A DNA stretch of 64,000 nt. It comes from Acidimicrobiaceae bacterium. Lineage in GTDB: Bacteria > Actinomycetota > Acidimicrobiia > Acidimicrobiales > Aldehydirespiratoraceae. The notes under the pieces are model-generated. The model was not told the DNA's origin and ran no database searches. It saw only the letters and a program-made list of their open reading frames with translations. The stretch is taken from NCBI GenBank assembly GCA_009837445.1, contig VXTM01000004.1, forward strand, positions 4,642-68,641, in the 5' to 3' direction. A program made the position numbers and the translations under genes. Positions 8,389 to 49,610 of this stretch are shown piece after piece (the stretch's first letter is position 1; every line of letters begins with the position of its first letter).

Positions 8389-8395
8389 GCACTCC

Positions 8396-13050: not shown

Positions 13051-13145
13051 AGAGGCCGAGCGAATGGGTGAGCGATTCCGGTGCATACGGGCGAGGCCGT
13101 GGCCCGAGCGGCCCGTGAGCGCAAGCGAACAAGAGCGGGAATGAC
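13051..13145 (+). repeat. roughly 95-nt intergenic element, copy A (direct repeat of 42682..42775)
   Basis: Starts AGAGGCCGAGCGAA. The core ACGGGCGAGGCCGTGGCCCGAGCGGCCCGTGAGCGCA(A)GCGAACAAGAGCGGGAATGAC is identical to copy B except for a 1-nt indel. It lies just after the last gene of an operon. Confidence 0.8.
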
Positions 13146-21458: not shown

Positions 21459-21470
21459 TTCGCCGGCCTC

Positions 21471-21511
21471 GCTTGCGGCTGCGGTCCTTGGGGGTGACCG
21501 CAGCCGCAAGC
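21471..21511 (+). terminator. perfect 16-bp stem-loop (intercistronic hairpin/attenuator) between the SBP and MFS-LivF genes
   Basis: GCTTGCGGCTGCGGTC (21471-21486), a 9-nt loop, then GACCGCAGCCGCAAGC (21496-21511). It begins 13 nt after the SBP stop and has no U-tract. Confidence 0.55.
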
Positions 21512-21555
21512 AGCCTGCGCCAGCCGAGCCGGTAGCAGACGAGCTCCTCCCCGGG

Positions 21556-23619: not shown

Positions 23620-23648
23620 ACCGAGCAGGACCGAGCGGAGACGCAGGG

Positions 23649-26534
23649 ATGCTTGCCGCCTGGCTCACATCGCAGCTGGTGTTCAACGGGCTGGTCAACG
23701 GGCTGGTCACCGGGCTGCTGGCCATGGGCCTGGTCCTGGTGTACCGGTCCACCCGGGTGGTGAACCTGGCCGTCGGCAACATGGGCCTGGTAGGCGCGTC
23801 GCTGCTGGCGCTCCTGGTGCTCAACTACCACTTCCCGTTCTGGCTGGCGCTGGCACTCAGCCTGGCCACCGGCACCCTGTTCGGCGCCGTCGTCGACCTG
23901 TTGGTGGTGCGCCGGCTGTTCAGCTCGCCGAGGGTGATAGTGCTGATGGCCACGGTGGGCGTGGCCCAGCTGGCCTCGGGGATCAGCGGCTCCTACCCCG
24001 ACCTCAACATGAGGGGCAACAAGTACCCCACCGCTCTATCCGGGGTGTTCGACGATGTCCTCGGGCTGCGGATCACCGGACCGCAGCTAAGCATTCTGAT
24101 CGTCGTGCCCGCAGCCGCGGTCGGGCTGGTGTGGCTGCTGCGGCGCACCACGTTCGGCCGCGCCGTGGAGGCCTCGGCCGACAATCCGTCACTGTCGCGG
24201 CTGTCCACCGTCAACCCCAAGATGGTCTCGACCTTCGTGTGGACCATCGCAGGGCTCCTGTCCACCGTCTCGATCATGCTCCTGTCGGCCCAGATCGGGA
24301 ACCCCGCCGGCTTGGACAACCTCGGGATGCTGACCATGGCCCGGGCCATGCTCGCATTCGTGCTGGCCGGCCAGCGGTCGTTCGCCCGGGCGGTGGCATT
24401 CGGTGCGCTGATCGGGGTGGGCGAGGCGGTGCTCAGGTTCAACCTGCTGACCGAGCCCGGACTGTTCGACTTCGCCGCGCTGGTGCTGGTGGTGGCCATC
24501 GTCTACCAGCAGAGCCGCTCGAGCCCGGACGACACCACCTTCGCCTTCGCGCCGAAGGCACGCCGCCCACCCGAGCGCGCTCAGGAAATCTGGTGGATCC
24601 GCAGGATGCCGCACCTGGCCGCGACGCTGATCATGGTGGCTGCTGTGCTGCTGCCGATCGTGGTGACCCGGCCCAGCCGCCACCTGCTCTACGCCTCCAT
24701 CGCCTGCTACGCGATCTGCGCCCTGTCGCTCACCGTCATCACCGGCTGGGCCGGACAGCTGTCGCTGGCCCAGATGGCCTTCGCCGGCCTGGGGGCCCTG
24801 CTGGCCGCCGCGCTCAACCGGGGCTTCGAGATGGACGTCTGGCTGCTCGACTTCCAGGCTCCAGCGATCCCCTACCTGGCCGCCATCGCGGTCGCCGCGG
24901 TGGTGATGGCGGGCGTCGCCGCGTTGGTCGGCCTAGGCGCGCTCCGGGTTCGGGGACTGCAGCTGGCCGTGATCACCTTCATGCTCGCGGTCGCAGCCGA
25001 GCAGTACATCTATCGCTGGCCGGTGCTCAGCGACGGCAACGCCAATTCGGTGTCGTTCCGCCGGGGCACGGTCCTCGGCCTGGATGTGAGCAGCCAGCGG
25101 GCCTACTACTACTTCTGTGTGGCCGTGCTGGTGGTGGTGTTCGTGCTGGTGGCCCGGCTGCGCAACAGCGGGATCGGCCGCTCCACCATCGCGGTGCGAG
25201 ACAACCCCGAGGCGGCCTCGGCCTACACCATCAGTCCGAGCCGCTCAAAGCTGGCCGCGTTCGCTATGGCCGGGGGCATCGCCGCTCTCGGCGGGGCGAT
25301 GCTGGGCGGCCTGTTCCAGAACATTCCCTTCGGTGAGCGCTACTACCTGATCGACGACTCGCTGCAGTTGGTGGCCATGGTCGTGATCGGCGGGCTCGGA
25401 GCGTTGACCGGACCGCTCGTCGGCGCCCTGTGGGTGATCGGTCTGCCTGCGTTCTTCGGTGACAACGAGCTTGTGCCCCTGTTCACGTCCAGCGTCGGGC
25501 TGCTCATCATCCTGATGTACTTCCCCGGCGGGTTCGCGCAGATCGGGTACGCCACCCGCAAGCTGCTGTACGACTGGGCTCTGCGGCGGCTGCCGCCCGA
25601 GGAGCCGGAGTCGGCCGCCAGGCCGGCGGCCGTACCGGTCACCGGCGGGGACCGGGCCCGCCCCGCGCCGGTGGGCGTGAGCGAGGGCGTAGCTCACTCA
25701 GCGCGTTCGGACGCGAGCGAGGGCGACGCCGTTCTGCGGGCCCGGGGAGTGTCGGTGAGCTTCGGCGGGCTTCAGGCGGTGTCGAGCGTCGACCTCGACG
25801 TCACCGGTGGCGAGATCGTGGGGCTCATCGGCACCAACGGCGCCGGTAAGACGACATTCGTGAACGCGGTCGGAGGCCACGTCGGCTCGCGGGGCACCGT
25901 CGAGCTGCTCGGCCACGACGTGTCGAGGCTGAGCGTGGAGGCTCGGGCCCGCCACGGGCTGGGCCGCACCTTCCAGACCGCCCGGCTGTTCGGCGAGCTG
26001 ACGGTGAGGGAGACGGTCCAGGTGGCGCTCGAGGCCCGGGGCCGCACCCCCTTCCTGAGCACCGCGCTGGGCCTGCCTGCGGCCCGGCGGCTGGCCCGGC
26101 AGCGACGGGCCGAAGCGGATGAGCTGATCGGGTTCTTCGGACTCGGCGGCTATGCCGAGGAGTTCATCGTCGACCTGTCGACCGGCACCCGCCGCGTCGT
26201 TGAGCTGACCAACCTCATGGCCCTCGACGCCAGGGTCCTCTGCCTCGACGAGCCGACCGCGGGCCTGGCCCAGCGCGAGAGCGAGGCCTTCGGGGTGCTG
26301 CTCGTGGAGGTGCGGCGCGAGTTGGAGGTGTCGATGCTGGTCATCGAGCACGACATGCCGCTCATCATGTCCATAAGCGACCGCGTGTACTGCCTCGAAG
26401 CCGGTCAGGTCATCTCCGAGGGCGCTCCGGCCGACGTCAGATCCGACCCCAAGGTGATCGACAGCTACCTCGGCACCGACGAGCGGGCCATCCTGCGCAG
26501 CGACGCTTCGGCGCCAACAGAAAGGAAAACGTGA
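23649..26534 (+). CDS. single-chain LivH-LivM-LivG (two branched-chain-type permease domains plus ATPase)
   Basis: The ATG at 23649 lies inside ORF 22068..26534. LivH-like LVNGLVTGLLAMGLVLVY, LivM-like ITGWAGQLSLAQMAFAGLGA, and an ATPase with GTNGAGKTT, LSTGTRR and LCLDEPTAG. 961 aa. Confidence 0.9.
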   Translation: MLAAWLTSQLVFNGLVNGLVTGLLAMGLVLVYRSTRVVNLAVGNMGLVGASLLALLVLNYHFPFWLALALSLATGTLFGAVVDLLVVRRLFSSPRVIVLMATVGVAQLASGISGSYPDLNMRGNKYPTALSGVFDDVLGLRITGPQLSILIVVPAAAVGLVWLLRRTTFGRAVEASADNPSLSRLSTVNPKMVSTFVWTIAGLLSTVSIMLLSAQIGNPAGLDNLGMLTMARAMLAFVLAGQRSFARAVAFGALIGVGEAVLRFNLLTEPGLFDFAALVLVVAIVYQQSRSSPDDTTFAFAPKARRPPERAQEIWWIRRMPHLAATLIMVAAVLLPIVVTRPSRHLLYASIACYAICALSLTVITGWAGQLSLAQMAFAGLGALLAAALNRGFEMDVWLLDFQAPAIPYLAAIAVAAVVMAGVAALVGLGALRVRGLQLAVITFMLAVAAEQYIYRWPVLSDGNANSVSFRRGTVLGLDVSSQRAYYYFCVAVLVVVFVLVARLRNSGIGRSTIAVRDNPEAASAYTISPSRSKLAAFAMAGGIAALGGAMLGGLFQNIPFGERYYLIDDSLQLVAMVVIGGLGALTGPLVGALWVIGLPAFFGDNELVPLFTSSVGLLIILMYFPGGFAQIGYATRKLLYDWALRRLPPEEPESAARPAAVPVTGGDRARPAPVGVSEGVAHSARSDASEGDAVLRARGVSVSFGGLQAVSSVDLDVTGGEIVGLIGTNGAGKTTFVNAVGGHVGSRGTVELLGHDVSRLSVEARARHGLGRTFQTARLFGELTVRETVQVALEARGRTPFLSTALGLPAARRLARQRRAEADELIGFFGLGGYAEEFIVDLSTGTRRVVELTNLMALDARVLCLDEPTAGLAQRESEAFGVLLVEVRRELEVSMLVIEHDMPLIMSISDRVYCLEAGQVISEGAPADVRSDPKVIDSYLGTDERAILRSDASAPTERKT

Positions 26535-28246
26535 TGGCTGCTTACGACCTGGTCGTCCGTAACGGTTCCGTCGTTGACGGCAGCGGCATGCCGGCGCGTC
26601 CTGCCGACGTGGCGGTGTCGGGCCGCAAGATCGTCGCCGTCGGCGCGGTGGAGGGCCGCGGCAGCCGTGAGATCGACGCCTCCGACCACATCGTCACGCC
26701 GGGATTCATCGACGGCCACACCCACATGGACGCCCAGTTCTTCTGGGATCCGCTGGGCACGTCCTCGTGCTGGCACGGGGTGACCACCGTGGTGGTGGGC
26801 AACTGCGGATTCACCCTGGCCCCGTGCCGGTCGGGCCAGGAGCAGCTCGTGATCGACAACCTCGAGAAGGCCGAGGACATCCCGGCCGCGGCGCTGGCCG
26901 CCGGGGTGCACTTCGAGTGGGAGACCTTCGCCCAGTACCTCGACGCCCTGGACCGGCTGCCCAAGGGGATCAACTTCGGCTCCTACCTGGGTCACTCGGC
27001 TCTGAGGACCTACGCCATGGGCGAGCGGGCCTTCGATTCGGAGGCGACCGAGGACGACCTCGAAGCCATGGAGCGAGAGCTGCGGGCCGGTCTGGCCGCC
27101 GGCGCGCTCGGCTTCACCACCTCCAGGAGCCACCACCACATGACGCCCTCGGGCCGCCCGGTGGCGTCGCGGGTGGCGCCCTGGGGCGAGGTCGAGCGCC
27201 TGGTGGCGGCCATGGCGGAGGCCGGAGGCGGAATGTTCGAGCTGGCCAACGAGTCGGTAATGGCATCCACCGACCCGGAGGGCCGGGCCGAGGCCATGGG
27301 CCGGCTGCGCCGCCTCGCGGTCGGCAACCGGGTGCCGGTCAGCTTCGGGATCTCCACCTTCGGCGATCCCAACCGCTGGCTGGAGCTGTTGCGGCTCCTC
27401 GACGACGCGGCCCGCGACGGTGCCCAGATGTGGGGCCAGAGCAGCTGCATGCCGTCGGGCGCGCTGTTCAACTTCAAGACCTGGCTGCCTTTCGACAAGG
27501 TGCCTGCCTGGTCCGAGCTGCGGGCCCGGCCCCTCGACGAGCAGACCGTCAAGCTGCGTGATCCGGACGTGCGGGCCAGTCTGATCGAGTCGCTCAGCGG
27601 CATGGACTTCTCACTGGGCAAGGAGGTGGCCCGCAAGCCGCTGTTCGAGCGGATCGTGGTGATGCAGCGCGACAGGGCCACCTCCCCCACGCTGGCCAGC
27701 GTGGCCGCTGAACGCGGCGTGCACCCGGCAGAAGCCATGATCGATCTGGGCCTGGAGTCCGACTTCGACACGTTCTTCCTGCAGATCACCAGCAACGACG
27801 AACCTGACGATGTGCTGACGATGCTGCGCCACCCCCGCACGGTCATGACCTTCTCCGACGCGGGGGCCCATGTGAGCCAGATCATCAGCGCGTCGCTGCA
27901 GACCTACCTGCTCAGCCACTGGGTGCGGGAGGTCGACGAGTTCTCCATCGAGGAGGCGGTGCGCATGATCACCCTGGTGCCTTCGAGCATCTGGGGCATG
28001 GCCGACCGAGGTCTGGTGCGTGAGGGCTTCGAGGCCGACCTGAACATCATCGACCTCGAGCGCCTGGAGCCGTGCGTGCCCGAGGTCGTCCACGACCTGC
28101 CGGCCGGCGCGACCCGGCTCACTCAGCGGGCCGAGGGCATCACGGCCACCATCGTGGGAGGCGAGGTGCTCCTAGAGGACGGCGAGCACACCGGCGCGCT
28201 GCCCGGCCGCCTAATCCGCCGCGCCGCTCTCAACCGGCCGATGTGA
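26531..28246 (+). CDS. N-acyl-D-amino-acid deacylase (D-aminoacylase, amidohydrolase family)
   Basis: YDLVVRNGSVVDGSG...VTPGFIDGHTHMD N-terminal signature, 571 aa. Start overlaps the upstream stop. Confidence 0.9.
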   Translation: MMAAYDLVVRNGSVVDGSGMPARPADVAVSGRKIVAVGAVEGRGSREIDASDHIVTPGFIDGHTHMDAQFFWDPLGTSSCWHGVTTVVVGNCGFTLAPCRSGQEQLVIDNLEKAEDIPAAALAAGVHFEWETFAQYLDALDRLPKGINFGSYLGHSALRTYAMGERAFDSEATEDDLEAMERELRAGLAAGALGFTTSRSHHHMTPSGRPVASRVAPWGEVERLVAAMAEAGGGMFELANESVMASTDPEGRAEAMGRLRRLAVGNRVPVSFGISTFGDPNRWLELLRLLDDAARDGAQMWGQSSCMPSGALFNFKTWLPFDKVPAWSELRARPLDEQTVKLRDPDVRASLIESLSGMDFSLGKEVARKPLFERIVVMQRDRATSPTLASVAAERGVHPAEAMIDLGLESDFDTFFLQITSNDEPDDVLTMLRHPRTVMTFSDAGAHVSQIISASLQTYLLSHWVREVDEFSIEEAVRMITLVPSSIWGMADRGLVREGFEADLNIIDLERLEPCVPEVVHDLPAGATRLTQRAEGITATIVGGEVLLEDGEHTGALPGRLIRRAALNRPM

Positions 28247-34171: not shown

Positions 34172-36394
34172 ATGGTGCTGACACCGGCTGCAGCTGAGCG
34201 CGTCTCAGCCCTGACACCGACGCTCACACCGCGTCCGAAGTTCCATGTCACCCGCAAGCTGGTGGGCGTCCCGAAATGGCCGCTCGTGCTGCTGACGGCC
34301 GTCTACACCATCAACGTGAGCGACCAGTTCCTGCTGTCGTCCATGTTCCCGCTGCTCAAGCGGGAGTTCGGCCTGTCCGACACCGCGCTGGGCATCCTCA
34401 GCGGTTCCTACCTGATCAGCGTGACCCTCGGTACCGTGCCTTTCGGGGCGCTGGCCGACCGCTACAGCCGCACCAGGATCATCGCCTGGGGCACGGCCTT
34501 CTGGGGGGTCACCATGATCTTCACCGGCATGGCCAGCGGCTTCTTCATGCTGCTGCTCGGTCGGATGGTGCTCGGCCTGTGGGATCCATGCGACAACCCG
34601 ACCTCGCAGTCGCTACTTGCCGACTACTACCCGGTGAACCAGCGCTCCAAAGTGATGGGCATCTACCAGATGGGCCAGCTCGTCGGGTTCTTCCTGCTGC
34701 CCATCGGCGGGCTCATGGGTCAGGCCTGGGGATGGCGGGCGACGTTCTTCTTCTTCGCGCTGCCCGCGTTCGTGGTGGCCCTGCTGAGCTGGCGCCTGCC
34801 CGAACCGGTCAGGGGGGTGCAGGAGCGGCGCCACCAGCGGCTCGAGTCCGACGAGAGCACCGTGATCGCATCAAAGTTACAGGGCCTTTCCATAGCGGAC
34901 GCCTACAAACACATCCTGCGGTGTCGCTCCTATACGGCCAGCCTGGTGTCCTCCGCGGTCGGCAGCCTCTTCTTCGGCGGCATCGGTGTGTGGACGCCGA
35001 CATTCCTGATCCGCTACCACGACCTGGACATCGCCGAGGCCTCCACCGCGATCATCGTGGTCGCGCTGGGCGGGCTGGTGGGCGTGCTCACGGCCGGCAA
35101 TCTCGCCGACTTCCTGACCCAGTCGGGCTACCTGTCGGCCCGGATCGGCGTGGCCGGGATCGCCCGCGTGATCTCGGCGCCGCTGTTCATGGCGGCGTTC
35201 CTGGTGAGCTACACGCCGCTGATGCTGCTGCTGTTCTCGTTCGGCGCCCTGTTCCTGGTAGGTGCCCTCCCGCCCCTCAACGCGGCCCGGGTCGATGTGC
35301 TGCATCCCGACCTGCGCGGCCGGGGCACCTCCCTGGACGCGGTCACCCAGAGCCTGGCCTCGGCGGCGTCGCCGGTGATCTACGGCATCATCGCCGACGC
35401 CAGCGATCTGCGGACCGCCTACCTGACACTCATCCCGCTGGCCGCGCTGGCCGGGCTGATCCTGTTGACGTTCGCGCTGGCCAGCTACCGGCGCGACGAG
35501 CAGGCCGTGCAGGAGCTGGTCCGACACGATCACGCCCGCCACGTCGCTCGCCTGACCGGAGACGGCCAGGAGCTCGAAGAGCCGGTCCCGATGGCGTCGC
35601 ACGGGAGCGATCCCGGTGCGGGGACAGCCCAGCCCCTGACCGGGGACCATGACGCCGCAGCCTCTGCCGAAGGAGTGGAGTCGTTGCTGCGGATCGAGGG
35701 GCTCGACTTCTCCTACGGGCCGATCCAGGTGCTCTTCGGCATCGACATGACCCTGCCGCAGGGCGGGTGCCATGCGCTGGTGGGCCGCAACGGCGTGGGC
35801 AAGACCACGCTGCTGGCCAACATCGGCGGCCTGCTGCACGCCCAGTCGGGCCAGATGTTCCTGCGGGACCAGGACCTGATCGGCATACCGCCAGAGCAAC
35901 GGGCCCGGCTCGGCATCACCCTGATGGCCGCCGGACAGTCGATATTCCCGTCGCTCAGCGTGCGGGACAACCTCTGGTTCGGCGGGTACCACTTCGCCGG
36001 CAGCGAGGGACTCGTCGACGACCGTCTCGACGAAGTCCTCGAAGTGTTCCCGGCATTGGGCCAGAGACTGGGCCAGCGGGCCGGAACCCTCTCCGGCGGC
36101 GAGCAACAGATGGTGGCGCTCGGCCGTGCCCTGGTGGCCGGCCCGGACCTTCTGCTGATCGACGAGCTCAGTCTCGGTCTGGCCCCGACCGTGACCGTGG
36201 AGCTCCTTGAGGTAGTGGAGAGAATTGCCGGTCTGGGCACGACGATCCTGCTCGTCGAGCAGTCGATCGGTGTGGCGTTGTCGGTGGCCGACACGGTGTT
36301 GTTCATGGATCGGGGCCGGGTGAGCGAATTGGGGCCTGCCGCCGAACTCGACGCCGACGCCCTGGCACTGCGGCTGCTGGAGAGCCACGAATGA
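34172..36394 (+). CDS. chimeric protein: MFS-like 12-TM domain fused to a LivF-type ABC ATPase (paralog of 21556..23619)
   Basis: MFS motif A GALADRYSRTRII. ATPase has GRNGVGKTT, LSGGEQQM and LLLIDELSLG. 740 aa, a single uninterrupted ORF. Confidence 0.9.
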   Translation: MVLTPAAAERVSALTPTLTPRPKFHVTRKLVGVPKWPLVLLTAVYTINVSDQFLLSSMFPLLKREFGLSDTALGILSGSYLISVTLGTVPFGALADRYSRTRIIAWGTAFWGVTMIFTGMASGFFMLLLGRMVLGLWDPCDNPTSQSLLADYYPVNQRSKVMGIYQMGQLVGFFLLPIGGLMGQAWGWRATFFFFALPAFVVALLSWRLPEPVRGVQERRHQRLESDESTVIASKLQGLSIADAYKHILRCRSYTASLVSSAVGSLFFGGIGVWTPTFLIRYHDLDIAEASTAIIVVALGGLVGVLTAGNLADFLTQSGYLSARIGVAGIARVISAPLFMAAFLVSYTPLMLLLFSFGALFLVGALPPLNAARVDVLHPDLRGRGTSLDAVTQSLASAASPVIYGIIADASDLRTAYLTLIPLAALAGLILLTFALASYRRDEQAVQELVRHDHARHVARLTGDGQELEEPVPMASHGSDPGAGTAQPLTGDHDAAASAEGVESLLRIEGLDFSYGPIQVLFGIDMTLPQGGCHALVGRNGVGKTTLLANIGGLLHAQSGQMFLRDQDLIGIPPEQRARLGITLMAAGQSIFPSLSVRDNLWFGGYHFAGSEGLVDDRLDEVLEVFPALGQRLGQRAGTLSGGEQQMVALGRALVAGPDLLLIDELSLGLAPTVTVELLEVVERIAGLGTTILLVEQSIGVALSVADTVLFMDRGRVSELGPAAELDADALALRLLESHE

Positions 36395-36930
36395 GCTCCT
36401 CGGCAGGCGCGCCGGATCCGCCGGGGGGCGACACACGCCCGAACACCGGCGAAGCGACCGGGTACGCGCCAGTCACCGCACAACTGCTGGACGCGGGCGC
36501 ACAGACGGCCAGACGGCTGCTGGGACCGTGGTGGAACGAGCGGTCCCGGCGAGCGCTCTTCGGCGTGCTCATCACCGCAGGCTTCCTGGTGGGTCTGGTG
36601 CTGGGCCTCCGCGACGTCTACGACCGGCCGGTCCTCGATGTCGGGGAGCCGAGGGTCAGAGTCGAGGGACTGACCGCAACGGTGCAGGTGACGGTTCGCA
36701 ACACCTCCGAGGACATCGCCTACTGCCCGGTGGTGGGGGTGGCGGCCCTCGACCGCGACGGCCTCGATCTGGCCAAGGCCCCCACCTCTGTCGACCTAGG
36801 CGATGCCCGGCTGGCGCCCAAGGCCAGCGCCAACTTCGTGGGCGTGCTCACCGGCATCAGCCAGCAGGACTTCGACGAGCAACTCAGTGATTACGCCGCG
36901 TTCGTGGAGCAGGAGAACCCCTGTCCATGA
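36391..36930 (+). CDS. hypothetical single-pass membrane protein with small extracytoplasmic domain
   Basis: ATGA overlap with the upstream gene. TM segment ALFGVLITAGFLVGLVLGL, followed by beta-strand-like VRVEGLTATVQVTVRNTSEDIAY. No family recognised. Confidence 0.6.
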   Translation: MSSSAGAPDPPGGDTRPNTGEATGYAPVTAQLLDAGAQTARRLLGPWWNERSRRALFGVLITAGFLVGLVLGLRDVYDRPVLDVGEPRVRVEGLTATVQVTVRNTSEDIAYCPVVGVAALDRDGLDLAKAPTSVDLGDARLAPKASANFVGVLTGISQQDFDEQLSDYAAFVEQENPCP

Positions 36931-37020
36931 CGCCGCCCGGTCGTTACCATCCAACTCGAACTCGCCGAGTCTGGGGCCCGGGTGCGCTTCGCCCAGTGAA
37001 GAGTAGTTGAGTCGAGCGCC

Positions 37021-39858
37021 ATGACGCTGCCGCTGGCCGGATTCGAGGTGCCCCACAACGTCGTCATCCTCGGCCTGATCACCGGCCTCACCTACTCGCT
37101 GCTTGGGTTGGGGATCACGCTCGTCTACCGGTCCTCCCGAGTCATCAACTTCGCGCACGGCGAGATGGGCGCGCTGGCCGCGCTCATGATCCCGATCTTC
37201 GCCCTCAATCTCGGTTGGCCCTACGCCATCGCACTGGTGATCGCGCTGATGGTGGCAGCAGCCGTCGGCGGGCTCTTCGAGTTCCTGGTGATCCGGCCCC
37301 TGCGATCTGCGTCCCGCCTGACCGTGCTGGTAGCCACCATCGGAGCATCGCAACTGCTGTTCTTCGGTGGCGCCCTGCTCCCCAAGGGCGGAGACATCGT
37401 GGGCAAGATCTACCCGACGCCCTTCGACTGGCGGTTCACCCTCGGAAAGCTCATTCTCGGGCCCGGCCAGCTGACCATCCTGGTCGCGGTCCCGATCCTG
37501 ACCATCGCTCTGACCCTATTCCTGGGCCGCAGCCGGCTGGGCAAGGCCAGCCGGGCCGCCGCCGAGAACACCGACGCGGCTCGCCTGGCCGGGGTGCCGA
37601 TCGACCGGGTGTCCTTCGCGGTGTGGACCGCGGCCGGGTTGCTCGCCGGGGTGTCAGCCATCCTCATCGGACCGACCCGACCCCTCGCGCTGTCGCAAGC
37701 TCTCGGCCCGCAACTCATGTTGAAGGCCCTCGCAGCCGCCATGCTCGGAGGGCTTACCCGCTTCTCGTCGGTATTCGCCGCGGGCATAGCCATCGGGATT
37801 CTCGAGGCCCTCGTGCTATGGAACTACCCGATCGGCGGTGCCTTGGACCTGGTGCTGTTCGCGGCGATCGCCGGCAGCTTCCTCATGAAGAAGGGCCTGG
37901 GCTCAGTGCTGCGAGGCTCCGAGCAGAGTTCCTGGTCGCTAGCCGCGGCCATCACACCCCTTGCGCCCGCGGTGGCGGGCCATTTCCGGGTCCGGTCCAC
38001 GAAGGTCGTACTGCTGGGCGCGATGCTGGCCGCGGCCGCCTACCTGCCCGCCCGCATGACGTCGTCGGAGCAGTTCTTTCTGGGCGCGGTCGCACTATTC
38101 GCGGTGTTGGGACTCTCGTTGGTGGTCCTGACCGGATTCGCAGGACAGGTCTCGCTCGGCCAGTTCGCTTTCGTGGCCGTCGGCGCGGCCCTCGGAGGCC
38201 GCCTCTACCAGATGGGCCTTCCCCACGGCCCGACACTCGTGGCCGTGACGGTGGCCGGCGGCCTGGTCGCGCTGTTGATAGGCGTGCCGGCTCTGCGGAT
38301 CCGGGGCCTGTTCCTAGCCGTCATCACGCTCGCCTTCTCGGTGGCCGCCAGCGGGTGGCTGCTGGAGCAGGACTGGCTCAACCATCGAGGCAGCGATGGG
38401 GGCACGTCGATGTCGATCCCGCGGCCGACCTTCGCCGGTGCCGGCTTCGACGACGAGATCCGCTACTACTGGGTCTGCCTGGGGGCGCTGCTGGTCACGA
38501 TGTTCGCCGTCCACCGGCTCCGGCGCAGCGGGCTCGGGCGGCGGATGGTCGCGGTCCGCGACAACGAGCCGTCAGCGGCGAGCATGGCCGTGTCGCCGCG
38601 CACCACCAAGCTGTCGGCCTTCGTGATCTCGGGAATGATCGCATCGTTCGGCGGGTTCCTCTACGGCGGCCTGCTGGTCACGTTCTCCGGGGACATCGAC
38701 GGGACGTTCGGCCCCGGCGAGTCGCTGTCGTTGGTGGTGATGACCATCTTCGGCGGGGTCACCACCATCACCGGCGCGGTCCTCGGAGCCTTTTGGGTGC
38801 AGGGCATACCCCGGATCCTGGGCGAGGACTGGGGCTTGCTCTCCTCGGGCATCGGCGTTCTGGCGGTGCTGCTCCTGCTGCCGGGCGGGCTGGCCTCGGT
38901 GGTCTTCGCCACCCGCGACAAACTGGTGGAGGCCGCGGCCGCCCGCGGACTGCTACCCGGCACTGAGCCGGCGGGCGAAGTCGCCGACGACCGGGTTCCT
39001 GCTCCGACGGAGCCGGTCGCGCCGCCGGTCCGGTCCGGCGACGATGAGGTGCTGGCCGCGTCGGGGGTGTCGGTGACCTACGGCGGGGTGAGCGCCCTAC
39101 GTGATGTCTCCATCAGCGTGAAGCGCCATGAGATCGTCGGTGTGATGGGGCCCAACGGGGCTGGCAAGACCACGCTGTTCGATGTCCTCTCGGGCCATCA
39201 GCGCCCCGACTCGGGCATCGTCTTGCTCGACGGGCGCGACATCAGCTCGCTGCCCGCCCACCGGCGGGCCCGGCTGGGGCTGGGCCGGTCCTTTCAGCAG
39301 GCCCGGCTGTTCGAGGACATGATGCTGGTGGACGCCGTGAGTCTGGCTTCCGAGCGCGACATGCCGATCCGGCTGGCCCCGATGCTTCTGGGCACGCCCC
39401 GAGCGCGCCGTCAGGAGCGGGAACGCGACCAGGCCGCGCTGCAGACTCTGGAGCGGTTGGGCCTCACCGAACACGCCCACCACCAGATCGGCAACCTGTC
39501 CACCGGCACGCGGCGCCTGGCCGAGCTGGCATGCGCGTTGGCGCTGGGGGCCCATGTGGTGCTGCTCGACGAGCCGACCGCCGGACTGAGCCCCCGGGAG
39601 GTTGACGACTTCGTTCGGGTCATCTCTGAACTGCACACTCGCCTATCGATGACCATCGTCGTGATAGACCACGACGTGGCCGTGATGCGCTCGCTGGTGG
39701 ACCGCCTATACGTGCTCGAGGCCGGCGATGAGATCGCGGCCGGCCCGCCTTCCATCCTCGACACCGACCGCCGGGTGGTGGAGGCCTACATGGGAACCCG
39801 CGATCCCGGCCCGTTCTCGACAAGGGGAGCATCGGACCGCTATCACGAGGGCCGTTGA
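37021..39858 (+). CDS. single-chain LivH-LivM-LivG (paralog of 23649..26534)
   Basis: 945 aa. LivH-like VVILGLITGLTYSLLGLGITLVY, LivM-like LTGFAGQVSLGQFAFVAVGA, and an ATPase with GPNGAGKTT, LSTGTRR and VLLDEPTAG. Confidence 0.9.
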   Translation: MTLPLAGFEVPHNVVILGLITGLTYSLLGLGITLVYRSSRVINFAHGEMGALAALMIPIFALNLGWPYAIALVIALMVAAAVGGLFEFLVIRPLRSASRLTVLVATIGASQLLFFGGALLPKGGDIVGKIYPTPFDWRFTLGKLILGPGQLTILVAVPILTIALTLFLGRSRLGKASRAAAENTDAARLAGVPIDRVSFAVWTAAGLLAGVSAILIGPTRPLALSQALGPQLMLKALAAAMLGGLTRFSSVFAAGIAIGILEALVLWNYPIGGALDLVLFAAIAGSFLMKKGLGSVLRGSEQSSWSLAAAITPLAPAVAGHFRVRSTKVVLLGAMLAAAAYLPARMTSSEQFFLGAVALFAVLGLSLVVLTGFAGQVSLGQFAFVAVGAALGGRLYQMGLPHGPTLVAVTVAGGLVALLIGVPALRIRGLFLAVITLAFSVAASGWLLEQDWLNHRGSDGGTSMSIPRPTFAGAGFDDEIRYYWVCLGALLVTMFAVHRLRRSGLGRRMVAVRDNEPSAASMAVSPRTTKLSAFVISGMIASFGGFLYGGLLVTFSGDIDGTFGPGESLSLVVMTIFGGVTTITGAVLGAFWVQGIPRILGEDWGLLSSGIGVLAVLLLLPGGLASVVFATRDKLVEAAAARGLLPGTEPAGEVADDRVPAPTEPVAPPVRSGDDEVLAASGVSVTYGGVSALRDVSISVKRHEIVGVMGPNGAGKTTLFDVLSGHQRPDSGIVLLDGRDISSLPAHRRARLGLGRSFQQARLFEDMMLVDAVSLASERDMPIRLAPMLLGTPRARRQERERDQAALQTLERLGLTEHAHHQIGNLSTGTRRLAELACALALGAHVVLLDEPTAGLSPREVDDFVRVISELHTRLSMTIVVIDHDVAVMRSLVDRLYVLEAGDEIAAGPPSILDTDRRVVEAYMGTRDPGPFSTRGASDRYHEGR

Positions 39859-39861
39859 GCA

Positions 39862-40788
39862 GTGCCGACCATCCGGAACGACCCTGCTGACCCGACCGAC
39901 CCAGAACCGCTGGACTTCGTGGACACCCACGTGCACTTCTGGGATCACCGCGTCGAAGGACTGCACTGGCGGTACCTCGATCCGGACTTCGACCATCCCC
40001 GCCTCAAGGGCATGCACCGCCTGGACGCGGCCCAGTACACCGCAGCCGAACTGCGAGCACAGGCAGGCGACCACGCGCCAGCCAGGATCGTGCACATCCA
40101 GTCCTGCGTGGAGGCGGTGCCCGGGCTGGAGACAGCCTGGCTCCAGTCGATGGCCGACGAACGCGGGTACCCGGATGCCATCGTCGCGCAGGCCCACCCC
40201 GCCGGGGCTGACATCTCCGCCGTGATCGAGGCCAACTCCGGCCACCGGCTGCTACGCGGCGTGCGGGACATGCTGTCGCCGCGCACCATCGACACCGAGG
40301 CCTTCGTCGAGGGCTTCGGTCTGCTGGCCGACGCCGGGCTGAGCCTGGAGGTGCTGGTGCCCTACCCGAAGTTCGACGCCGTCTGCGCTCTGGCCGACCG
40401 GCGGCCCGACGCCACCTTGATCCTCGGTCACGCCGGCCAGCCCGAGCGGCGCGACCGCGACTATTACGCCGAATGGTCCCGCGGCATCCACAAGGTGGCG
40501 ACGAGGACAAACATCGTGGTCAAGATCTCGGCCCTGGCCAGCGGCGCCGACCCCGGCTGGAGCGTCGACAGCATCAGACCGTGGGCGCTTCACTGCATCG
40601 AGGCTTTCGGTTCCGACCGGGCAATGTTCGGCACCAACTGGCCCATCGACCGCCTCTACGGCAGATACGCCGCCCTTGTCGAGGCCTACCTGGAGATCAC
40701 CTCGGCGCTGACCGCCACGGAGCGTCGGGCCCTCTTCTCAGCTACGGCCACCCGCGTCTACCGCCTCGATGCCCGATCACATGCTTGA
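39862..40788 (+). CDS. amidohydrolase-2 family metal-dependent hydrolase
   Basis: FVDTHVHFWD, ILGHAGQP and FGTNWPIDRL motifs. GTG start 4 nt after the upstream stop. Confidence 0.85.
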   Translation: MPTIRNDPADPTDPEPLDFVDTHVHFWDHRVEGLHWRYLDPDFDHPRLKGMHRLDAAQYTAAELRAQAGDHAPARIVHIQSCVEAVPGLETAWLQSMADERGYPDAIVAQAHPAGADISAVIEANSGHRLLRGVRDMLSPRTIDTEAFVEGFGLLADAGLSLEVLVPYPKFDAVCALADRRPDATLILGHAGQPERRDRDYYAEWSRGIHKVATRTNIVVKISALASGADPGWSVDSIRPWALHCIEAFGSDRAMFGTNWPIDRLYGRYAALVEAYLEITSALTATERRALFSATATRVYRLDARSHA

Positions 40789-40806
40789 TACGCTCAAACC
40801 TCGCCC

Positions 40807-41643
40807 ATGACAGCCAAGATTCGTTTGAAGCCCCTTACCGGGTCCGTCGGTGTGAGCCTCAGCGGCATCGACCTGACCACCGACTTCTCCGAAGCCGAGG
40901 CCGACGCCCTCCGATCGGCCCTCTACAACCACTGCGTCCTCGTGCTGCGCGACCAGTTCATCTCCCCGGACGACCATATGCGCCTGGCCGCGGTGTTCGG
41001 CGAGCCCTTCCTGCCCTGGTACTACGCCAAGAACTCGCTTGAGGGCTATCCGAAGATCGCCATCGTGCCCAACTTCGGCAAGGCCAAGGCCCCGGCGGAG
41101 TCGTGGCACACCGACTGGTCGCACATGCCCACCCCGCCGACGGTGTCGGTCGCGCTGGCCCATGTCCTGCCCGAGACCGGTGGCGACACGATGTTCTCGA
41201 ACCAGTACGTCGCCTACGACCGCCTGTCGGAGGGCATGAAGCAGCTCATCGCCGGCCGGCGGGGCAAGTTCGTGGGCTCCCGGCCCAAACGCGTCCAGAA
41301 GATGCACGGGAGGCCGGACACCCTTCCCTCCACCGAACGCGAACCGGTGGACAACTACCACCCCATCGCCCGAGTCCATCCGGAAACGGGCCGGACCGCC
41401 CTCTACCTCAACCGGCCCGGCAAGTCGATGGTCGCCATCGAGGGCCTCACCGAGGCCGAGAGCTTCCCCATCCTCCAGTTCCTGTACGACCAGTCCTCGA
41501 CGCCCGACAACGTCTACCGCCACCAGTGGCGGCCCGGCGACATCGTCTGCTGGGACAACCAGTGCGCCATGCACTACGGGGTGCACGACTACGGCGATGC
41601 CGAGCGCACCCTCCACCGGATAACGGTCGGCGGGGTCGAGTAA
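40807..41643 (+). CDS. TauD/TfdA-family Fe(II)/2-oxoglutarate dioxygenase
   Basis: WHTDWSH (HxD), GGDTMFSN, and a distal His in the WDNQCAMHYGVHDY context. Confidence 0.9.
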   Translation: MTAKIRLKPLTGSVGVSLSGIDLTTDFSEAEADALRSALYNHCVLVLRDQFISPDDHMRLAAVFGEPFLPWYYAKNSLEGYPKIAIVPNFGKAKAPAESWHTDWSHMPTPPTVSVALAHVLPETGGDTMFSNQYVAYDRLSEGMKQLIAGRRGKFVGSRPKRVQKMHGRPDTLPSTEREPVDNYHPIARVHPETGRTALYLNRPGKSMVAIEGLTEAESFPILQFLYDQSSTPDNVYRHQWRPGDIVCWDNQCAMHYGVHDYGDAERTLHRITVGGVE

Positions 41644-41735
41644 CCGACGCTCGGCTTCTGAGAGCAGCGACATCGAGGCCGGTGGCCGGTAGCAGCACCC
41701 AGCCAGACCACCGGCGCGGCGACGGGTCGGGCCAT

Positions 41736-42683
41736 GTGTTGTTCTGCACCGACACGTTCCTGCGCGACCATGGGCCGAGGCTGCGCGCCGCCGCACCCGG
41801 TCTTGATGCCGTCGTCCTCGACTCCAGCGACACCATCGCGGCCGCCGACATCGAACGGGCGACCATCGCCTTCATGTCGCGCGACACCTGGCCGGCCCGA
41901 GCCCGAGCCTTCATCGACGGTGTGATGGCAGCCAAGAGTCTGGACTGGTTCCATGTCATGTCCGCCGGTGTCGACGGACCCCCCTTCGATACTCTCAGAG
42001 CACGGGGCGTCCGCGTAACCCGATCGGCGGGAGCATCGGCCAACGCAATGGCCGAGAGCGTCTTCATGTTCCTCCACGGGCTGTCTCGCAACCTCCGCAA
42101 CGCTCACCTCGACTACGCCCAACGCCGGTTCGAGTGGCATCGCTGGCGCGAGCTCGAGCATCGCCGTATCGCCGTGCTCGGCTACGGGCCCGTCGGGCAG
42201 CGGATCGTTCATCTGGCGCTGGCGTACGGTATGCAGCCAACCATCGTTCGCCGGCATGCCCGCGGTGACGAGCCGTGCCCCACACGGGCGGTGAACGAAC
42301 TCCGCGAGATAGTCGCCGACCACGACGTGATCGTCATCGCGCTGCCCGTGACCGACGACACCCGCAACATCGTCTCCGCCGATGTCATCGCGGCCATGGC
42401 TCCCGAGACCGTGGTCATCAACGTGGCCCGCGGCGCCCTGGTGGACCAGACCGCTCTCACAGAAGCGCTGAAGGCAGGACGGGTCGCGGGCGCAGGCCTC
42501 GACGTCTTCGTCACCGAGCCACTCCCGCCCGACGACCCGCTGTGGGAACTGCCCAACGTGCTGATCACTCCCCACAACTCGGGCTCCAGCCACGGCAGCC
42601 CGTTACGGGTCATCGACCTGTTCTTCGACAACCTCGACCTCTACCTCGCCGGCCGCCCGATGCACTACGAAGTACCCGGCTAG
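41736..42683 (+). CDS. D-isomer-specific 2-hydroxyacid dehydrogenase family protein
   Basis: IAVLGYGPVGQRI NAD fold, INVARGALVD, and ITPHNSG catalytic His context. The GTG start at 41736 is inferred, because the longer ORF 41103.. overlaps the TauD gene. Confidence 0.8.
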   Translation: MLFCTDTFLRDHGPRLRAAAPGLDAVVLDSSDTIAAADIERATIAFMSRDTWPARARAFIDGVMAAKSLDWFHVMSAGVDGPPFDTLRARGVRVTRSAGASANAMAESVFMFLHGLSRNLRNAHLDYAQRRFEWHRWRELEHRRIAVLGYGPVGQRIVHLALAYGMQPTIVRRHARGDEPCPTRAVNELREIVADHDVIVIALPVTDDTRNIVSADVIAAMAPETVVINVARGALVDQTALTEALKAGRVAGAGLDVFVTEPLPPDDPLWELPNVLITPHNSGSSHGSPLRVIDLFFDNLDLYLAGRPMHYEVPG

Positions 42684-42775
42684 AGGCCGAGCGAACCGGC
42701 GAGCCAATCCGGCCCAGACGGGCGAGGCCGTGGCCCGAGCGGCCCGTGAGCGCAGCGAACAAGAGCGGGAATGAC
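42682..42775 (+). repeat. roughly 95-nt intergenic element, copy B (direct repeat of 13051..13145)
   Basis: It begins inside the stop codon of the 2-hydroxyacid dehydrogenase gene, at the end of an operon. The core is identical to copy A except for a 1-nt indel. Confidence 0.8.
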
Positions 42776-42864
42776 ACCGCCACACCGCGACCGGCTCTCG
42801 CCTGCCGCAGTGCCCCGCTAGAAGCCGAGCGGGGACGCCTGTGCGCTGTTGACCGTGCAGAGAC

Positions 42865-47006: not shown

Positions 47007-47894
47007 TCAGAGGGCTGCGCCGACAGTTATACGGACGAGGGTGCGCTCAACGTCGCCGTAGTCGTGGACGCCGTAGTGCATGGTGCAGCGGTTGTCCCAC
47101 GCGACGAGGTCCCCGGGGGTCCACGAGTGGCGGTACACGTTGTCGGGGGTCACCGACTGTGCGTGCAGGAACTCGAAGATCGGCAGGCTCTCCGCCTCTG
47201 TCATGCCCTCGAACTGGGTCATCGCCTTGCCGGGACGATTCATGTAGAGCGCCTTGCGGCCGGTGGCGGGATGGGTGGGCGCGATCAGGTGGTAGTGGGC
47301 CACCTCTTCCTTCTGGTCGTCGGGCAGGAGGTCGGAGATCCGGTCCATGTGCCTGACGGCGCCGACCGGCCTGGTGCCCACGAAGCGGGCCCGGCGCCCC
47401 TCGAGGAACTCCTTCATGCCGTCAGAGAGACGGTCGTAGGCGTTGTACTGGTTCGAGAACATGGTGTCGCCCCCGACGGCAGGAATCGTCCGCCCGACCG
47501 CGATCGACACGGTGGGCGGGACCCGGAAGTGCGATCCGTCGACGTGCCAACCCTCCGACGGGGTCTTCTCCTTGCCGAAGTTGGGGATCACCGCGATGTG
47601 GGGATACCCCTCCACCGAGTTGGCCCGGTAGTAGTGGGGCAGAAACGGCTCTCCCCAGAGCCGGGCCACCCTCATGTGGGCGTCGGGCGTGAGGAACTGG
47701 CCCCGCACGACCAGTACGCAGTTCTCGTGGAGCGCCTCACGGATGATCGTTCCCGTCGCCTCGTCGAAGTCCTCGTTGAGGTCGACTCCGGTGACGATCG
47801 CGCCTACCGAGCCGGTGGCCTTGCGAACCTGTACCCCGCCTGAGGTGTTGTCCTGTCCCGCGAGAGCCTCGGTCGAGTCGATGGTGCTGGTCAT
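47007..47894 (-). CDS. TauD/TfdA-family Fe(II)/2-oxoglutarate dioxygenase (paralog of 40807..41643)
   Basis: Start MTSTID at 47894 inside ORF 47007..48173. WHVDGSH, GGDTMFSN and WDNRCTMHYGVHDY motifs. By eye about 60% identical to the other TauD copy. Confidence 0.9.
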   Translation of the reverse strand: MTSTIDSTEALAGQDNTSGGVQVRKATGSVGAIVTGVDLNEDFDEATGTIIREALHENCVLVVRGQFLTPDAHMRVARLWGEPFLPHYYRANSVEGYPHIAVIPNFGKEKTPSEGWHVDGSHFRVPPTVSIAVGRTIPAVGGDTMFSNQYNAYDRLSDGMKEFLEGRRARFVGTRPVGAVRHMDRISDLLPDDQKEEVAHYHLIAPTHPATGRKALYMNRPGKAMTQFEGMTEAESLPIFEFLHAQSVTPDNVYRHSWTPGDLVAWDNRCTMHYGVHDYGDVERTLVRITVGAAL

Positions 47895-49536: not shown

Positions 49537-49555
49537 AATTGGGTATACTGAGTTT
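49537..49555 (+). promoter_or_regulatory. AT-rich box AATTGGGTATACTGAGTTT (-10-like TATACT)
   Basis: Lies 56 nt upstream of the GTG at 49611 and belongs to the same motif family. Confidence 0.45.
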
Positions 49556-49610
49556 CGATCTCGGGCCGGCACGTCCGCCGGTCCTTCGACATCCCAGAGG
49601 GAGGGCACTC

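Follow-up and report, generated by a model that had tools for sequence, protein, structure and literature searches.

ABC transporters draw on ATP and MFS carriers on ion gradients, and the two are treated as separate machines. Among ABC importers, the closest described relatives of the system presented here are the LIV-I/HAAT systems (TC 3.A.1.4), including LivJ/K-LivHMGF of E. coli and UrtABCDE, which share with it two BPD_transp_2 membrane domains, a LivG and a LivF ATPase, and probably a lipoprotein solute-binding protein (SBP) related to Peripla_BP_6. The LivF hallmarks SYG.IQ, LSGGEQQM and a VEQ that replaces the switch histidine are common to both as well. The closest secondary carriers are the Spinster proteins (HnSpns, PDB 6E8J; human SPNS1 and SPNS2) and the anion:cation symporter DgoT, which have in common with the system a 12-helix MFS fold, a motif A and PEPxRG after TM6. 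A membrane domain followed by a nucleotide-binding domain is the order found in ABC half-transporters, and NarK1-NarK2 nitrate/nitrite fusions hold two transport activities of one pathway at a 1:1 ratio. CouPSTU of Rhodopseudomonas palustris, a related ABC system, takes up lignin-derived aromatic acids (PMC3610893), and when R. palustris SBPs annotated for branched-chain amino acids were screened, the ligands were mostly aromatic, fatty and dicarboxylic acids (PMC3223731), indicating that LIV-type systems often import organic acids. These systems are of the same broad ABC importer type as the one below and also lie inside catabolic clusters; no MFS domain has been described for them (PMC3610893, PMC3223731).

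Here, we describe locus 2, one of two related loci in the window, that is, the whole 64-kb stretch of DNA that was analysed. In contrast to LIV-I/HAAT systems, locus 2 carries the H, M and G components in one chain and an N-terminal 12-helix MFS domain on LivF, and its subfamily adds a small membrane protein. Spinster proteins and DgoT are free-standing secondary carriers, whereas the MFS domain of locus 2 is covalently joined to an ABC ATPase, a fusion seen in more than 200 full-length clusters among the matches listed. Nor does the fusion belong with ABC half-transporters, which have an exporter-fold membrane domain and coupling helices: its membrane part has the MFS fold and shows no apparent coupling helix, a disordered linker follows, and the ATPase is of an importer family. 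While NarK1-NarK2 joins two MFS carriers, locus 2 joins a secondary carrier to an ATP-driven importer. No description of an MFS-ABC or MFS-LivF fusion was found in the literature covered by full-text searching.

Architecture of the two chains

All features given by coordinates lie on the forward strand. The first chain of locus 2 is a 740-aa MFS-LivF fusion (34172-36394) for which Pfam places MFS_1 (6e-51) and ABC_tran (2e-24) on a single polypeptide, and the AlphaFold2 model of the whole chain has a pLDDT of 82 and a pTM of 0.75. The MFS domain (aa 36-461; 34277-35554) is modelled with 12 long helices, the number that the two six-helix bundles of an MFS carrier call for. Foldseek matches it to SPNS1 (9boi, TM 0.83), SPNS2, HnSpns and DgoT, and phmmer relates its sequence to HnSpns (6e8j) at 2.5e-18; the best NCBIfam scores for this half come from organic-anion and aromatic-acid symporter subfamily models. 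A motif search located motif A, GALADRYSRTRII (aa 92-104; 34445-34483), in which GALADRYSRTR (aa 92-102) fits G-x-x-x-D-R-x-x-R in the TM2-TM3 loop, with D96 and R100 invariant across 16 sequences, the paralogue included. Its counterpart in the C-domain is a motif-A-like LRGRG (35312-35326), whose LRG residues 381-383, together with polar residues inside the predicted helices, are invariant or nearly so. By alignment, the acidic D51 and D138 of the domain appear to correspond to D41 and E129 of HnSpns.

The MFS domain is followed by a disordered, unconserved linker (aa 462-503; 35555-35680) that is variable in length and has a mean identity of 15.7% among orthologues; in the AlphaFold2 model, residues 464-501 have a pLDDT below 50. 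The remainder of the chain is a LivF-type ATP-binding domain (aa 504-740; 35681-36394) whose best NCBIfam models are UrtE (5e-54) and LivF (1e-45) and which matches PDB 1ji0 by sequence (8e-52) and by structure (Foldseek TM 0.90). Its Walker A is GRNGVGKTT (aa 538-546; 35783-35809), its signature LSGGEQQM (aa 640-647; 36089-36112) and its Walker B LLLIDE (36149-36166), and the switch position reads VEQS (36254-36265).

Turning to the second chain, the 945-aa LivH-LivM-LivG fusion (37021-39858) contains BPD_transp_2 twice (1.3e-54), the membrane domains of a HAAT importer, and ABC_tran (6e-28). LivH occupies approximately 37021-37920, LivM 38008-38940 and LivG 39046-39858, the last with Walker A at 39148-39174, Walker B at 39556-39576 and an H-loop at 39658-39675. 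The LivG part scores 3e-61 (LivG) and 2e-51 against NCBIfam models of the LivG/UrtD type and matches MJ1267 (LivG, 1g6h) in the PDB, where LivHM finds no match by sequence. Full-length orthologues of the chain have 954, 943 and 957 aa in the related loci L084, L087 and L002, respectively. Both chains have intact ATPase motifs, and the pair of LivG-type and LivF-type ATPases that marks HAAT importers is present at the sequence level. Since the NCBIfam scores for both ATPases all lie under the equivalog cut-offs, these assignments are made at family level.

A first-pass annotation of the same DNA had read 34172-39858 as two chains, an MFS-LivF chimera and a LivHMG protein, and had pointed out motif A, GRNGVGKTT and LSGGEQQM. 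Pfam, NCBIfam, structure prediction and other genomes uphold both chains, the motifs are all present and the limits of both ORFs were exact; what escaped it is a conserved small gene inside this range (36391-36930; 179 aa as the longest ORF). The start of the small gene overlaps the MFS-LivF stop (ATGA), so that it is translationally coupled to MFS-LivF, and it directly follows LivF in L084, L086, L087, L088 and L092. Its product has no Pfam or NCBIfam match; its 42 homologue clusters are all unnamed or 'hypothetical', and the few with a named taxon come from Acidimicrobiia-type MAGs. C112 and C178 are invariant among the homologues. The AlphaFold2 model (pLDDT 81) places a TM helix at residues 50-77 and, beyond it, strands over residues 82-174; the Foldseek search of the PDB returned generic Ig-like or beta-sandwich matches alone (E of 3e-3 or higher). 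The product is predicted to be a single-pass membrane-anchored protein with an extracytoplasmic beta-sandwich, and it may act as an accessory subunit limited to the locus-2 subfamily.

Paralogues, relatives and pairing of the chains

The second system in the window, locus 1 (19962-28246), consists of an SBP gene (19962-21458), MFS-LivF (21451-23619), LivHMG (23649-26534) and an Amidohydro_3 gene (26531-28246). UrtB and UrtC models match the locus-1 paralogue weakly and far under their cut-offs. Locus 2 was thought at first reading to repeat the architecture of locus 1, and indeed the MFS-LivF plus LivHMG layout is the same in both. Overall identity between the loci is 31% for MFS-LivF and 37% for LivHMG; by domain it is 24% for MFS, 39% for LivH, 42% for LivM, 46.6% for LivF and 43% for LivG, the two ATPase values being close to the 40% that had been estimated by eye. 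With just 31-37% identity, the loci are old paralogues and not assembly duplicates. Assembly duplication is further ruled out by the recurrence of the locus-2 ORFs, with DNA about 99.4% identical, on contigs of three independent samples and by the full-length orthologues that top both protein searches. Each paralogue has its own full-length orthologues (58-91% identity), and genes of the locus-1 and locus-2 types apparently lie on one 340,818-bp contig. Given the separate orthologue sets and the presence of the locus-1 type in Embleya and Dactylosporangium, the duplication predates much of the diversification of the lineages that carry it. The earlier view of an old duplication with fusions kept by selection is thus supported by separate orthologues and by other genomes.

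The MFS-LivF importer family is old and widely conserved in actinobacteria. Most of this large family belongs to Acidimicrobiia, organisms abundant in soil, water and sponge microbiomes, and isolates of Embleya and Dactylosporangium carry it as well. Among the matches listed, more than 100 full-length clusters are orthologues of the locus-2 MFS-LivF. The SBP, MFS-LivF and LivHMG module of locus 1 recurs in Embleya sp. NBC_00888 (L094), and Dactylosporangium sp. CA-233914 (L002) has a gene order related to that of the locus-1 system. Of the best 150 representatives of the family, 53 have a sister architecture in which the MFS is joined to both ATPases (MFS-LivF-LivG), and 40 have MFS-LivF. L001, the single sister member inspected at the DNA level, lies directly after a LivHM gene and has an MFS-to-ATPase spacing of about 20 residues, much shorter than the linker of locus 2. 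A scan of GTDB species genomes with the generic LivF motif LSGGEQQM returned mostly ordinary LivF, with L001 and L002 being informative; for this reason, synteny is drawn from about a dozen loci obtained by exact protein look-up.

In a neighbour-joining tree of 241 LivF domains (LivG root, no bootstrap), the locus-1 type falls within a pure MFS-LivF clade of 19 members and the locus-2 type in a small clade of its own. As the rooting is ladder-like and the sampling biased, the tree leads to no conclusion on a single or multiple origin of the fusion. Stand-alone or split MFS relatives (P0113, P0115 and P0119) were considered as unfused ancestors and rejected; their contigs are full of broken, overlapping frames, and they are treated as frameshift errors.

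How the two chains depend on one another can be judged from gene content and comparison with other loci. LivHMG carries a single ATPase domain, and the window holds two MFS-LivF and two LivHMG genes with no free LivF or LivG. A free LivF is also absent from most of the related loci examined. With one ATPase in LivHMG and no free LivF nearby, the MFS-LivF chain is very probably an obligate subunit of the importer. LivHMG comes directly after MFS-LivF in locus 1 of the window and in L002, L089, L090, L091 and L094, and a small gene separates the two in L084 and L087; in L086 and L092, LivHMG is 4-7 kb away on the opposite strand. Two observations count against obligate pairing. No LivHMG was detected within 10 kb in L088, and free ATPase genes (213-292 aa) occur near the cluster in L088, L091 and L092, although two of these cases are in assemblies with visibly broken neighbour genes.

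Binding protein, neighbouring enzymes and substrate

It had been remarked that locus 2 has no adjacent SBP, which is literally correct, yet an SBP gene at 48031-49512 is linked to it by synteny in related loci. The encoded protein has a lipobox (AAAC) and a low-complexity linker, and no Pfam, NCBIfam or PDB sequence match. Orthologues of this SBP (E of 1e-63 to 1e-158) are encoded 1.5-4.4 kb from transporter or cluster genes of the locus-2 type in L084, L086, L087, L088 and L092; the L084 orthologue has Peripla_BP_6. The sole link between this SBP and that of locus 1 is a distant match (5e-21). On the strength of conserved synteny, locus 2 probably works with the lipoprotein at 48031-49512 and not with the SBP at 19962. 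In L089 and L091, no SBP was found within 7 kb, which weakens schemes relying on an SBP.

Downstream of the transporter, an amidohydrolase, a TauD-type dioxygenase and a 2-hydroxyacid dehydrogenase had been proposed, and all three are confirmed at 39862-42683. The lactonase-like hydrolase of the Amidohydro_2 family (39862-40788; Pfam 2.9e-32) begins 4 bases past the end of LivHMG and occupies the same position in L084 and L087. Its sole PDB relative is 4dlf ('Amidohydrolase 2'), and its best NCBIfam model, L-fucono-1,5-lactonase, is far under cut-off. The TauD/TfdA-family 2-oxoglutarate dioxygenase (40807-41643; Pfam 3e-55) scores 190 bits against the NCBIfam taurine dioxygenase model, which has a cut-off of 313. 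A D-2-hydroxyacid dehydrogenase-family gene (41682-42683) is the last of the tight co-directional run, and after it come a 152-nt polymorphic insert and a promoter-like site. Matches in the promoter and terminator scan were not above chance, and Rfam found no RNA family across the whole window.

No substrate can be named, because none of the neighbouring enzymes tested attains an equivalog score in NCBIfam. From gene context, the proposal in the first-pass annotation that uptake is linked to the catabolism of an organic acid or a derivative is a reasonable hypothesis. The substrate would be such a compound, passed on to the enzymes of the nearby hydrolase, dioxygenase, dehydrogenase and CoA-transferase genes. 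A branched-chain amino acid is an improbable substrate and, with the scores below equivalog cut-offs, so is urea. A scheme of import, hydrolysis and export built on the hydrolase gene after LivHMG was also considered and is weakened, since no hydrolase gene adjoins the transporter in L089 and L091, both of the locus-1 type.

Role of the MFS domain

The MFS N-domain has a mean identity of 71.5% over 14 orthologues, above that of the ATPase. Compared with the orthologues in L084 and L087, the two closest loci, it is 83% and 80% identical, the highest of the cluster parts; the same comparisons give 72-78% for LivH and LivM, 72-73% for LivF, 64-66% for LivG, 61% for the SBP and 57-60% for the hydrolase. 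L086 is more distant, and there the N-domain (64%) hardly differs from LivF (63%). The paralogues share 24% identity in their MFS halves and 39-47% in the ABC parts, which we count as ligand-linked divergence. The MFS-LivF family is under strong purifying selection. Judged by the conservation pattern and the intact motifs, the MFS domain is no relic and probably works as a ligand-specific module.

The explanation we hold with moderate confidence is that the genes of locus 2 specify a two-chain ABC importer of the LIV/HAAT type that depends on a binding protein, with the MFS as a second path. LivH-LivM-LivG would contribute both membrane domains and one ATPase, and the other chain would contribute the LivF-type ATPase, a flexible linker of about 40 residues and a complete Spinster-like 12-helix MFS in the same membrane. 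Conserved synteny suggests that the lipoprotein SBP would hand the substrate to this importer. The LivG-LivF dimer that drives import could form solely with the MFS-LivF chain, which would make the MFS stoichiometric and obligate. For the MFS itself, the role we prefer is that of an additional, proton-coupled route for the organic acid that the pathway uses or produces, which may take the form of lower-affinity uptake of the same organic-acid class or of a product's efflux or exchange. Through the fusion, this route would stay at 1:1 with the ATP-driven one.

An unlikely alternative is that the MFS does not transport and instead anchors the chain in the membrane, serves as a scaffold for assembly or senses a ligand (as a 'transceptor') and so tunes the importer ATPase. 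Domains joined to importer ATPases are often regulatory, the linker is flexible, and ligand-specific conservation would suit a sensor too. In TM1, moreover, the domain has Q52 where the HnSpns alignment has arginine, so its coupling chemistry may differ from that of characterised Spinster proteins. However, the two motifs that serve alternating access, motif A and its counterpart in the C-domain, hardly vary, and the full 12-helix fold is retained with high model confidence. A mere anchor would have no need of an N-domain that is better conserved than the rest of the cluster.

Quite unlikely, in our estimate, is a hybrid primary and secondary machine in which ATP-driven LivG-LivF closure is coupled, allosterically or mechanically, to alternating access of the MFS; either import through LivHM would be obligatorily tied to co- or counter-transport via the MFS, or ATP would gate the MFS itself. 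The long disordered linker counts against tight mechanical coupling. The short spacing in L001 would be in keeping with closer coupling, at least in some members.

We give a low probability to MFS-LivF working independently of LivHMG as an ATPase-dimerised pair in which ATP drives or gates the MFS. Its membrane-then-ATPase order resembles that of ABC half-transporters, and in L086, L088 and L092 MFS-LivF is tightly linked to the small-protein and hydrolase genes, with LivHMG distant or not seen. Yet LivHMG would then be left without a second ATPase, and LivG is the usual partner of LivF-type domains. The sister MFS bears both LivF and LivG next to LivHM, no coupling helix is evident and the linker is disordered, and MFS-LivF and LivHMG are adjacent in every locus-1-type locus sampled.

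We consider it highly improbable that this is simply a LIV-I importer for branched-chain amino acids whose MFS part is incidental. Automatic annotations do name branched-chain amino acid transport components, and LivF and LivG are among the best NCBIfam models, but every score is far under the equivalog cut-off, the SBPs lie far from characterised ones and find no sequence match in the PDB, and the neighbours are organic-acid catabolic enzymes. Furthermore, SBPs of this family mostly did not bind Leu, Ile or Val when tested (PMC3223731). Finally, an artefactual fusion through a missed stop, a frameshift or chimeric assembly of two genes can be dismissed with near certainty: MFS and LivF are separate genes on some related contigs, but these split cases come from assemblies whose neighbour genes are broken into overlapping frames, and the frame is uninterrupted in the three independent samples, in the Dactylosporangium and Embleya isolates (complete genomes or replicons) and in the more than 200 clusters mentioned above.

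Returning to the two-chain importer with an MFS second path, an MFS carrier as a covalent and apparently obligate part of an ABC importer crosses the textbook divide between the two kinds of machine. Databases label members of the MFS-LivF family as 'MFS transporter' or as 'ATP-binding protein' alone, and annotations such as 'branched-chain amino acid transporter' are unsafe to take literally in genomes of this kind. If the two modules cooperate, they would represent a new mode of transport organisation, which may be dual-affinity uptake, import joined to product efflux, or an ATP-gated carrier. The question of cooperation is testable, as the module is present in the isolates Embleya sp. NBC_00888 and Dactylosporangium sp. 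CA-233914.

Architecture and ancestry of the locus 2 transporter

In the window, where G+C is ~70%, locus 2 encodes a 740-aa MFS-LivF chain (34172-36394) and a 945-aa LivHMG chain (37021-39858), exactly the boundaries proposed by the first-pass annotation. Profile searches against Pfam and NCBIfam bear out the proposed domain content of both chains. In the Pfam searches, MFS_1 (6e-51) and ABC_tran (2e-24) lie together in the former, while the latter contains BPD_transp_2 in two stretches (1e-54) and ABC_tran (6e-28). The NCBIfam matches direct the first ATPase to UrtE/LivF models and the second to LivG/UrtD models, all with scores below the equivalog cut-offs. The nearest solved structure to the first is 1ji0, a Thermotoga ABC ATPase that we take to be LivF-type; those nearest to the second include the LivG protein MJ1267 (1g6h), and for LivH and LivM none was detectable by sequence search. 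Both ATPases retain intact Walker A, signature, Walker B and switch regions. A 641-aa ORF upstream (8363-10288) also carries an ABC ATPase, of a different family unrelated to the LIV-type loci 1 and 2.

The membrane domains and both ATPases place locus 2 among the HAAT/LIV ABC importers, while its tie to a solute-binding protein (SBP) is only indirect. The appended domain belongs to the MFS and has Spinster-like features; however, Spinster-like carriers are free-standing and this domain is not. AlphaFold2, run with 16 family members, gave a model (pLDDT 82, pTM 0.75) in which residues 36-461 of the MFS-LivF chain form twelve long helices, residues 464-501 fall below pLDDT 50, and residues 504-736 form a canonical nucleotide-binding domain. 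In Foldseek comparisons the ATPase aligned with 1ji0 (TM 0.90), and hits for the membrane domain included human SPNS1 (TM 0.83), SPNS2, HnSpns and the galactonate symporter DgoT. HnSpns, a bacterial Spinster homologue, was also found by sequence (2.5e-18), in agreement with Foldseek. Given the positively charged N-terminus and the twelve-helix topology, the C-terminus is predicted to be cytoplasmic, which would place the ATPase on the correct side of the membrane.

The first-pass annotation described locus 2 as an old, diverged repeat of the locus 1 architecture, a view that holds up. Locus 1 comprises an SBP (19962-21458), MFS-LivF (21451-23619), LivHMG (23649-26534) and an Amidohydro_3 gene (26531-28246). 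Identity between the loci is 31% for MFS-LivF overall and 37% for LivHMG overall, ranging by part from 24% to 47% (LivF 46.6%, LivH 39%, LivM 42%, LivG 43%, with the MFS domain lowest). Among the matches listed, full-length orthologues show 50-88% identity for the locus 2 type and 58-91% for the locus 1 type, and a single 340,818-bp contig, to judge by its length, seems to carry both types (proteins P0088 and P0342). Three independent samples yielded contigs that match the window at ~99.4% identity, and on these the same ORFs recur. Together, the separate orthologues and this recurrence exclude gene-calling artefacts as well as the assembly duplication that the annotation had raised. Judged by their sequences, loci 1 and 2 are old paralogues; a LivF tree was built without bootstrap and is poorly rooted.

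When the 150 top-ranking cluster representatives (50% identity; library of 1.8 billion proteins) are sorted by architecture, 53 are MFS-LivF-LivG triple fusions of ~1000 aa (e.g. P0164, P0165), 40 are MFS-LivF, 23 are LivHM-LivF-LivG, and the remainder form smaller groups. One triple fusion lies directly after a LivHM gene in a Microthrixaceae MAG (L001, 7809-12893), with just ~20 residues between its MFS domain and LivF; the membrane-anchored protein that follows may be an SBP. Source names of homologues, the taxonomic spread of which rests on names assigned to metagenome bins, include Acidimicrobiaceae, Ilumatobacteraceae and Candidatus Poriferisocius. The locus 1 module also occurs in two isolates, in the order SBP, MFS-LivF, LivHMG in Embleya sp. 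NBC_00888 (where 98% of the protein aligns at 56% identity) and MFS-LivF, LivHMG, SBP in Dactylosporangium sp. CA-233914. The complete Embleya module lies within 2472408-2490564 of NZ_CP108785.1, a 5.7-Mb linear record filed as a 'plasmid' with 8 annotated features. In databases the fusion proteins go under 'MFS transporter', 'ATP-binding protein' or a double COG name, and no account of an MFS-ABC or MFS-LivF fusion turned up in the full-text literature searched.

Accessory genes, candidate binding protein and substrate

A small conserved gene missed by the first-pass annotation (36391-36930, 179 aa) lies between the two chains, its start overlapping the MFS-LivF stop codon (ATGA). In a synteny comparison of about a dozen loci, it is directly 3' of LivF in all five locus-2-type loci examined (L084, L086, L087, L088 and L092) and absent from locus 1 and its orthologues. 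The protein has no Pfam or NCBIfam match, and its 42 homologue clusters are each unnamed or 'hypothetical protein'. In its model (pLDDT 81), a single transmembrane helix leads into a ~100-residue beta-sandwich, which the charge distribution would place outside the cell. Two cysteines are invariant, and Foldseek returned just generic Ig-like, ApaG-like or DUF1425-like matches (E >= 3e-3).

Downstream, as the first-pass annotation stated, LivHMG runs on into an amidohydrolase, a TauD-family dioxygenase and a D-2-hydroxyacid dehydrogenase, with spacings of 4 to about 40 bases. The first is a lactonase-like Amidohydro_2 protein with 4dlf as its sole PDB relative. Immediately after the dehydrogenase stop codon, a 152-nt intergenic segment (42684-42835) is bounded by near-identical short direct repeats (CTAGAGGCCGAGCG / CTAGAAGCCGAGCG) and is missing from the otherwise 99.4% identical contigs L081 and L082. 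Its first 92 nt have a 90%-identical copy in another intergenic region (13053-13145), and the segment resembles a small polymorphic repeat element.

The annotation was right that no SBP adjoins locus 2, but it overlooked the lipoprotein SBP at 48031-49512, beyond ~8 kb of extra catabolic genes, as the probable partner. In five related loci, orthologues of this SBP (E from 1e-63 to 1e-158) lie 1.5-4.4 kb from locus-2-type transporter or cluster genes. The order in L084 is LivHMG, Amidohydro_2, lactamase_B, acetyltransferase, TauD, SBP and CoA-transferase, and its last three genes recur, with one small gene added, at 47-53 kb in the window. This conserved gene order makes the SBP the likely partner of locus 2. 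The island has two TauD-family paralogues, at 40807-41643 and 47007-47843 (minus strand); since the sole TauD beside the L084 SBP is closer to the 40807 copy (72%) than to the SBP-adjoining one (64%), the stretch from LivHMG to the SBP may have undergone gene rearrangement or insertion in this genome. A 353-aa ORF (49539-50600) separates the SBP from the double CoA-transferase and weakly matches a 'WKL family lipoprotein' model (9e-13, below cut-off).

Further genes of this neighbourhood, conserved across several related loci, specify an acetolactate-synthase-like TPP enzyme, an SMP-30-type lactonase, a P450 and a double family-III CoA-transferase; acyl-CoA dehydrogenases are additional genes of related loci. 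None of the neighbouring enzymes tested against NCBIfam reached an equivalog score. An organic acid or amino-acid derivative, as first proposed, remains a fair summary of the putative substrate. Among R. palustris SBPs annotated as branched-chain, most bound aromatic, fatty or dicarboxylic acids instead of Leu/Ile/Val (PMC3223731), and CouPSTU imports lignin-derived aromatic acids (PMC3610893). A plain LIV-I amino-acid importer is very unlikely.

Possible roles of the MFS domain

LivHMG has a single, LivG-type ATPase, and no free LivF or LivG was found within the window; in L091, a locus-1-type locus, two free ATPase genes occur whose type is uncertain. It is the MFS chain that carries the LivF-type partner, and in the sister architecture it carries both ATPases; by this gene content the MFS domain would be a 1:1 component of the importer. 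An independent, ATP-driven MFS homodimer would leave LivHMG without a partner and is at odds with the MFS-LivF-LivG architecture adjoining LivHM, making it quite unlikely. That the fusion is an artefact is essentially excluded, as split-looking MFS and LivF genes are confined to assemblies whose neighbours are also broken into overlapping frames. In three such loci (L088, L092 and L093; ENA 'contig_NNNNN'), the MFS, LivF, SBP and LivHMG genes appear divided among overlapping frames and many neighbours are truncated too; indel errors from long-read assembly are the probable cause, rather than true gene fission.

That the MFS domain serves as a scaffold or sensor and transports nothing is rather unlikely, and a truly coupled primary/secondary hybrid machine also has a low probability. 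Motif A (GALADRYSRTR), a second motif-A-like LRGRG, the PEPxRG segment after TM6 and the polar residues D51, Q52, R131 and D138 within predicted helices are invariant or near-invariant throughout the family. In the two closest orthologous loci (L084 / L087), no other part of the cluster is as well conserved as the MFS N-domain (83% / 80%), which is followed by LivH and LivM (72-78%), LivF (72-73%), LivG (64-66%), SBP (61%) and hydrolase (57-60%); in the more distant L086 the N-domain is similar to LivF (64% and 63%). The MFS-LivF linker is variable in length, with 16% identity among orthologues. Between the paralogues, the MFS halves (24% identity) have diverged far more than the ABC parts and the SBPs are only distantly related (phmmer 5e-21), the pattern expected of a ligand-specific module.

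The best subfamily models for the MFS half are organic-anion and aromatic-acid symporters, and its best structural relatives are Spinster transporters. Overall, we consider it reasonably probable that locus 2 is a LIV-type importer whose MFS domain would be a functional carrier handling a solute from the same pathway. The architectural part of this reading is close to certain, while the specific role of the domain is tentative. As such a carrier, it could add a proton-coupled path for taking up the same class of organic acid alongside the ABC route, or it may allow efflux or exchange of a pathway product.
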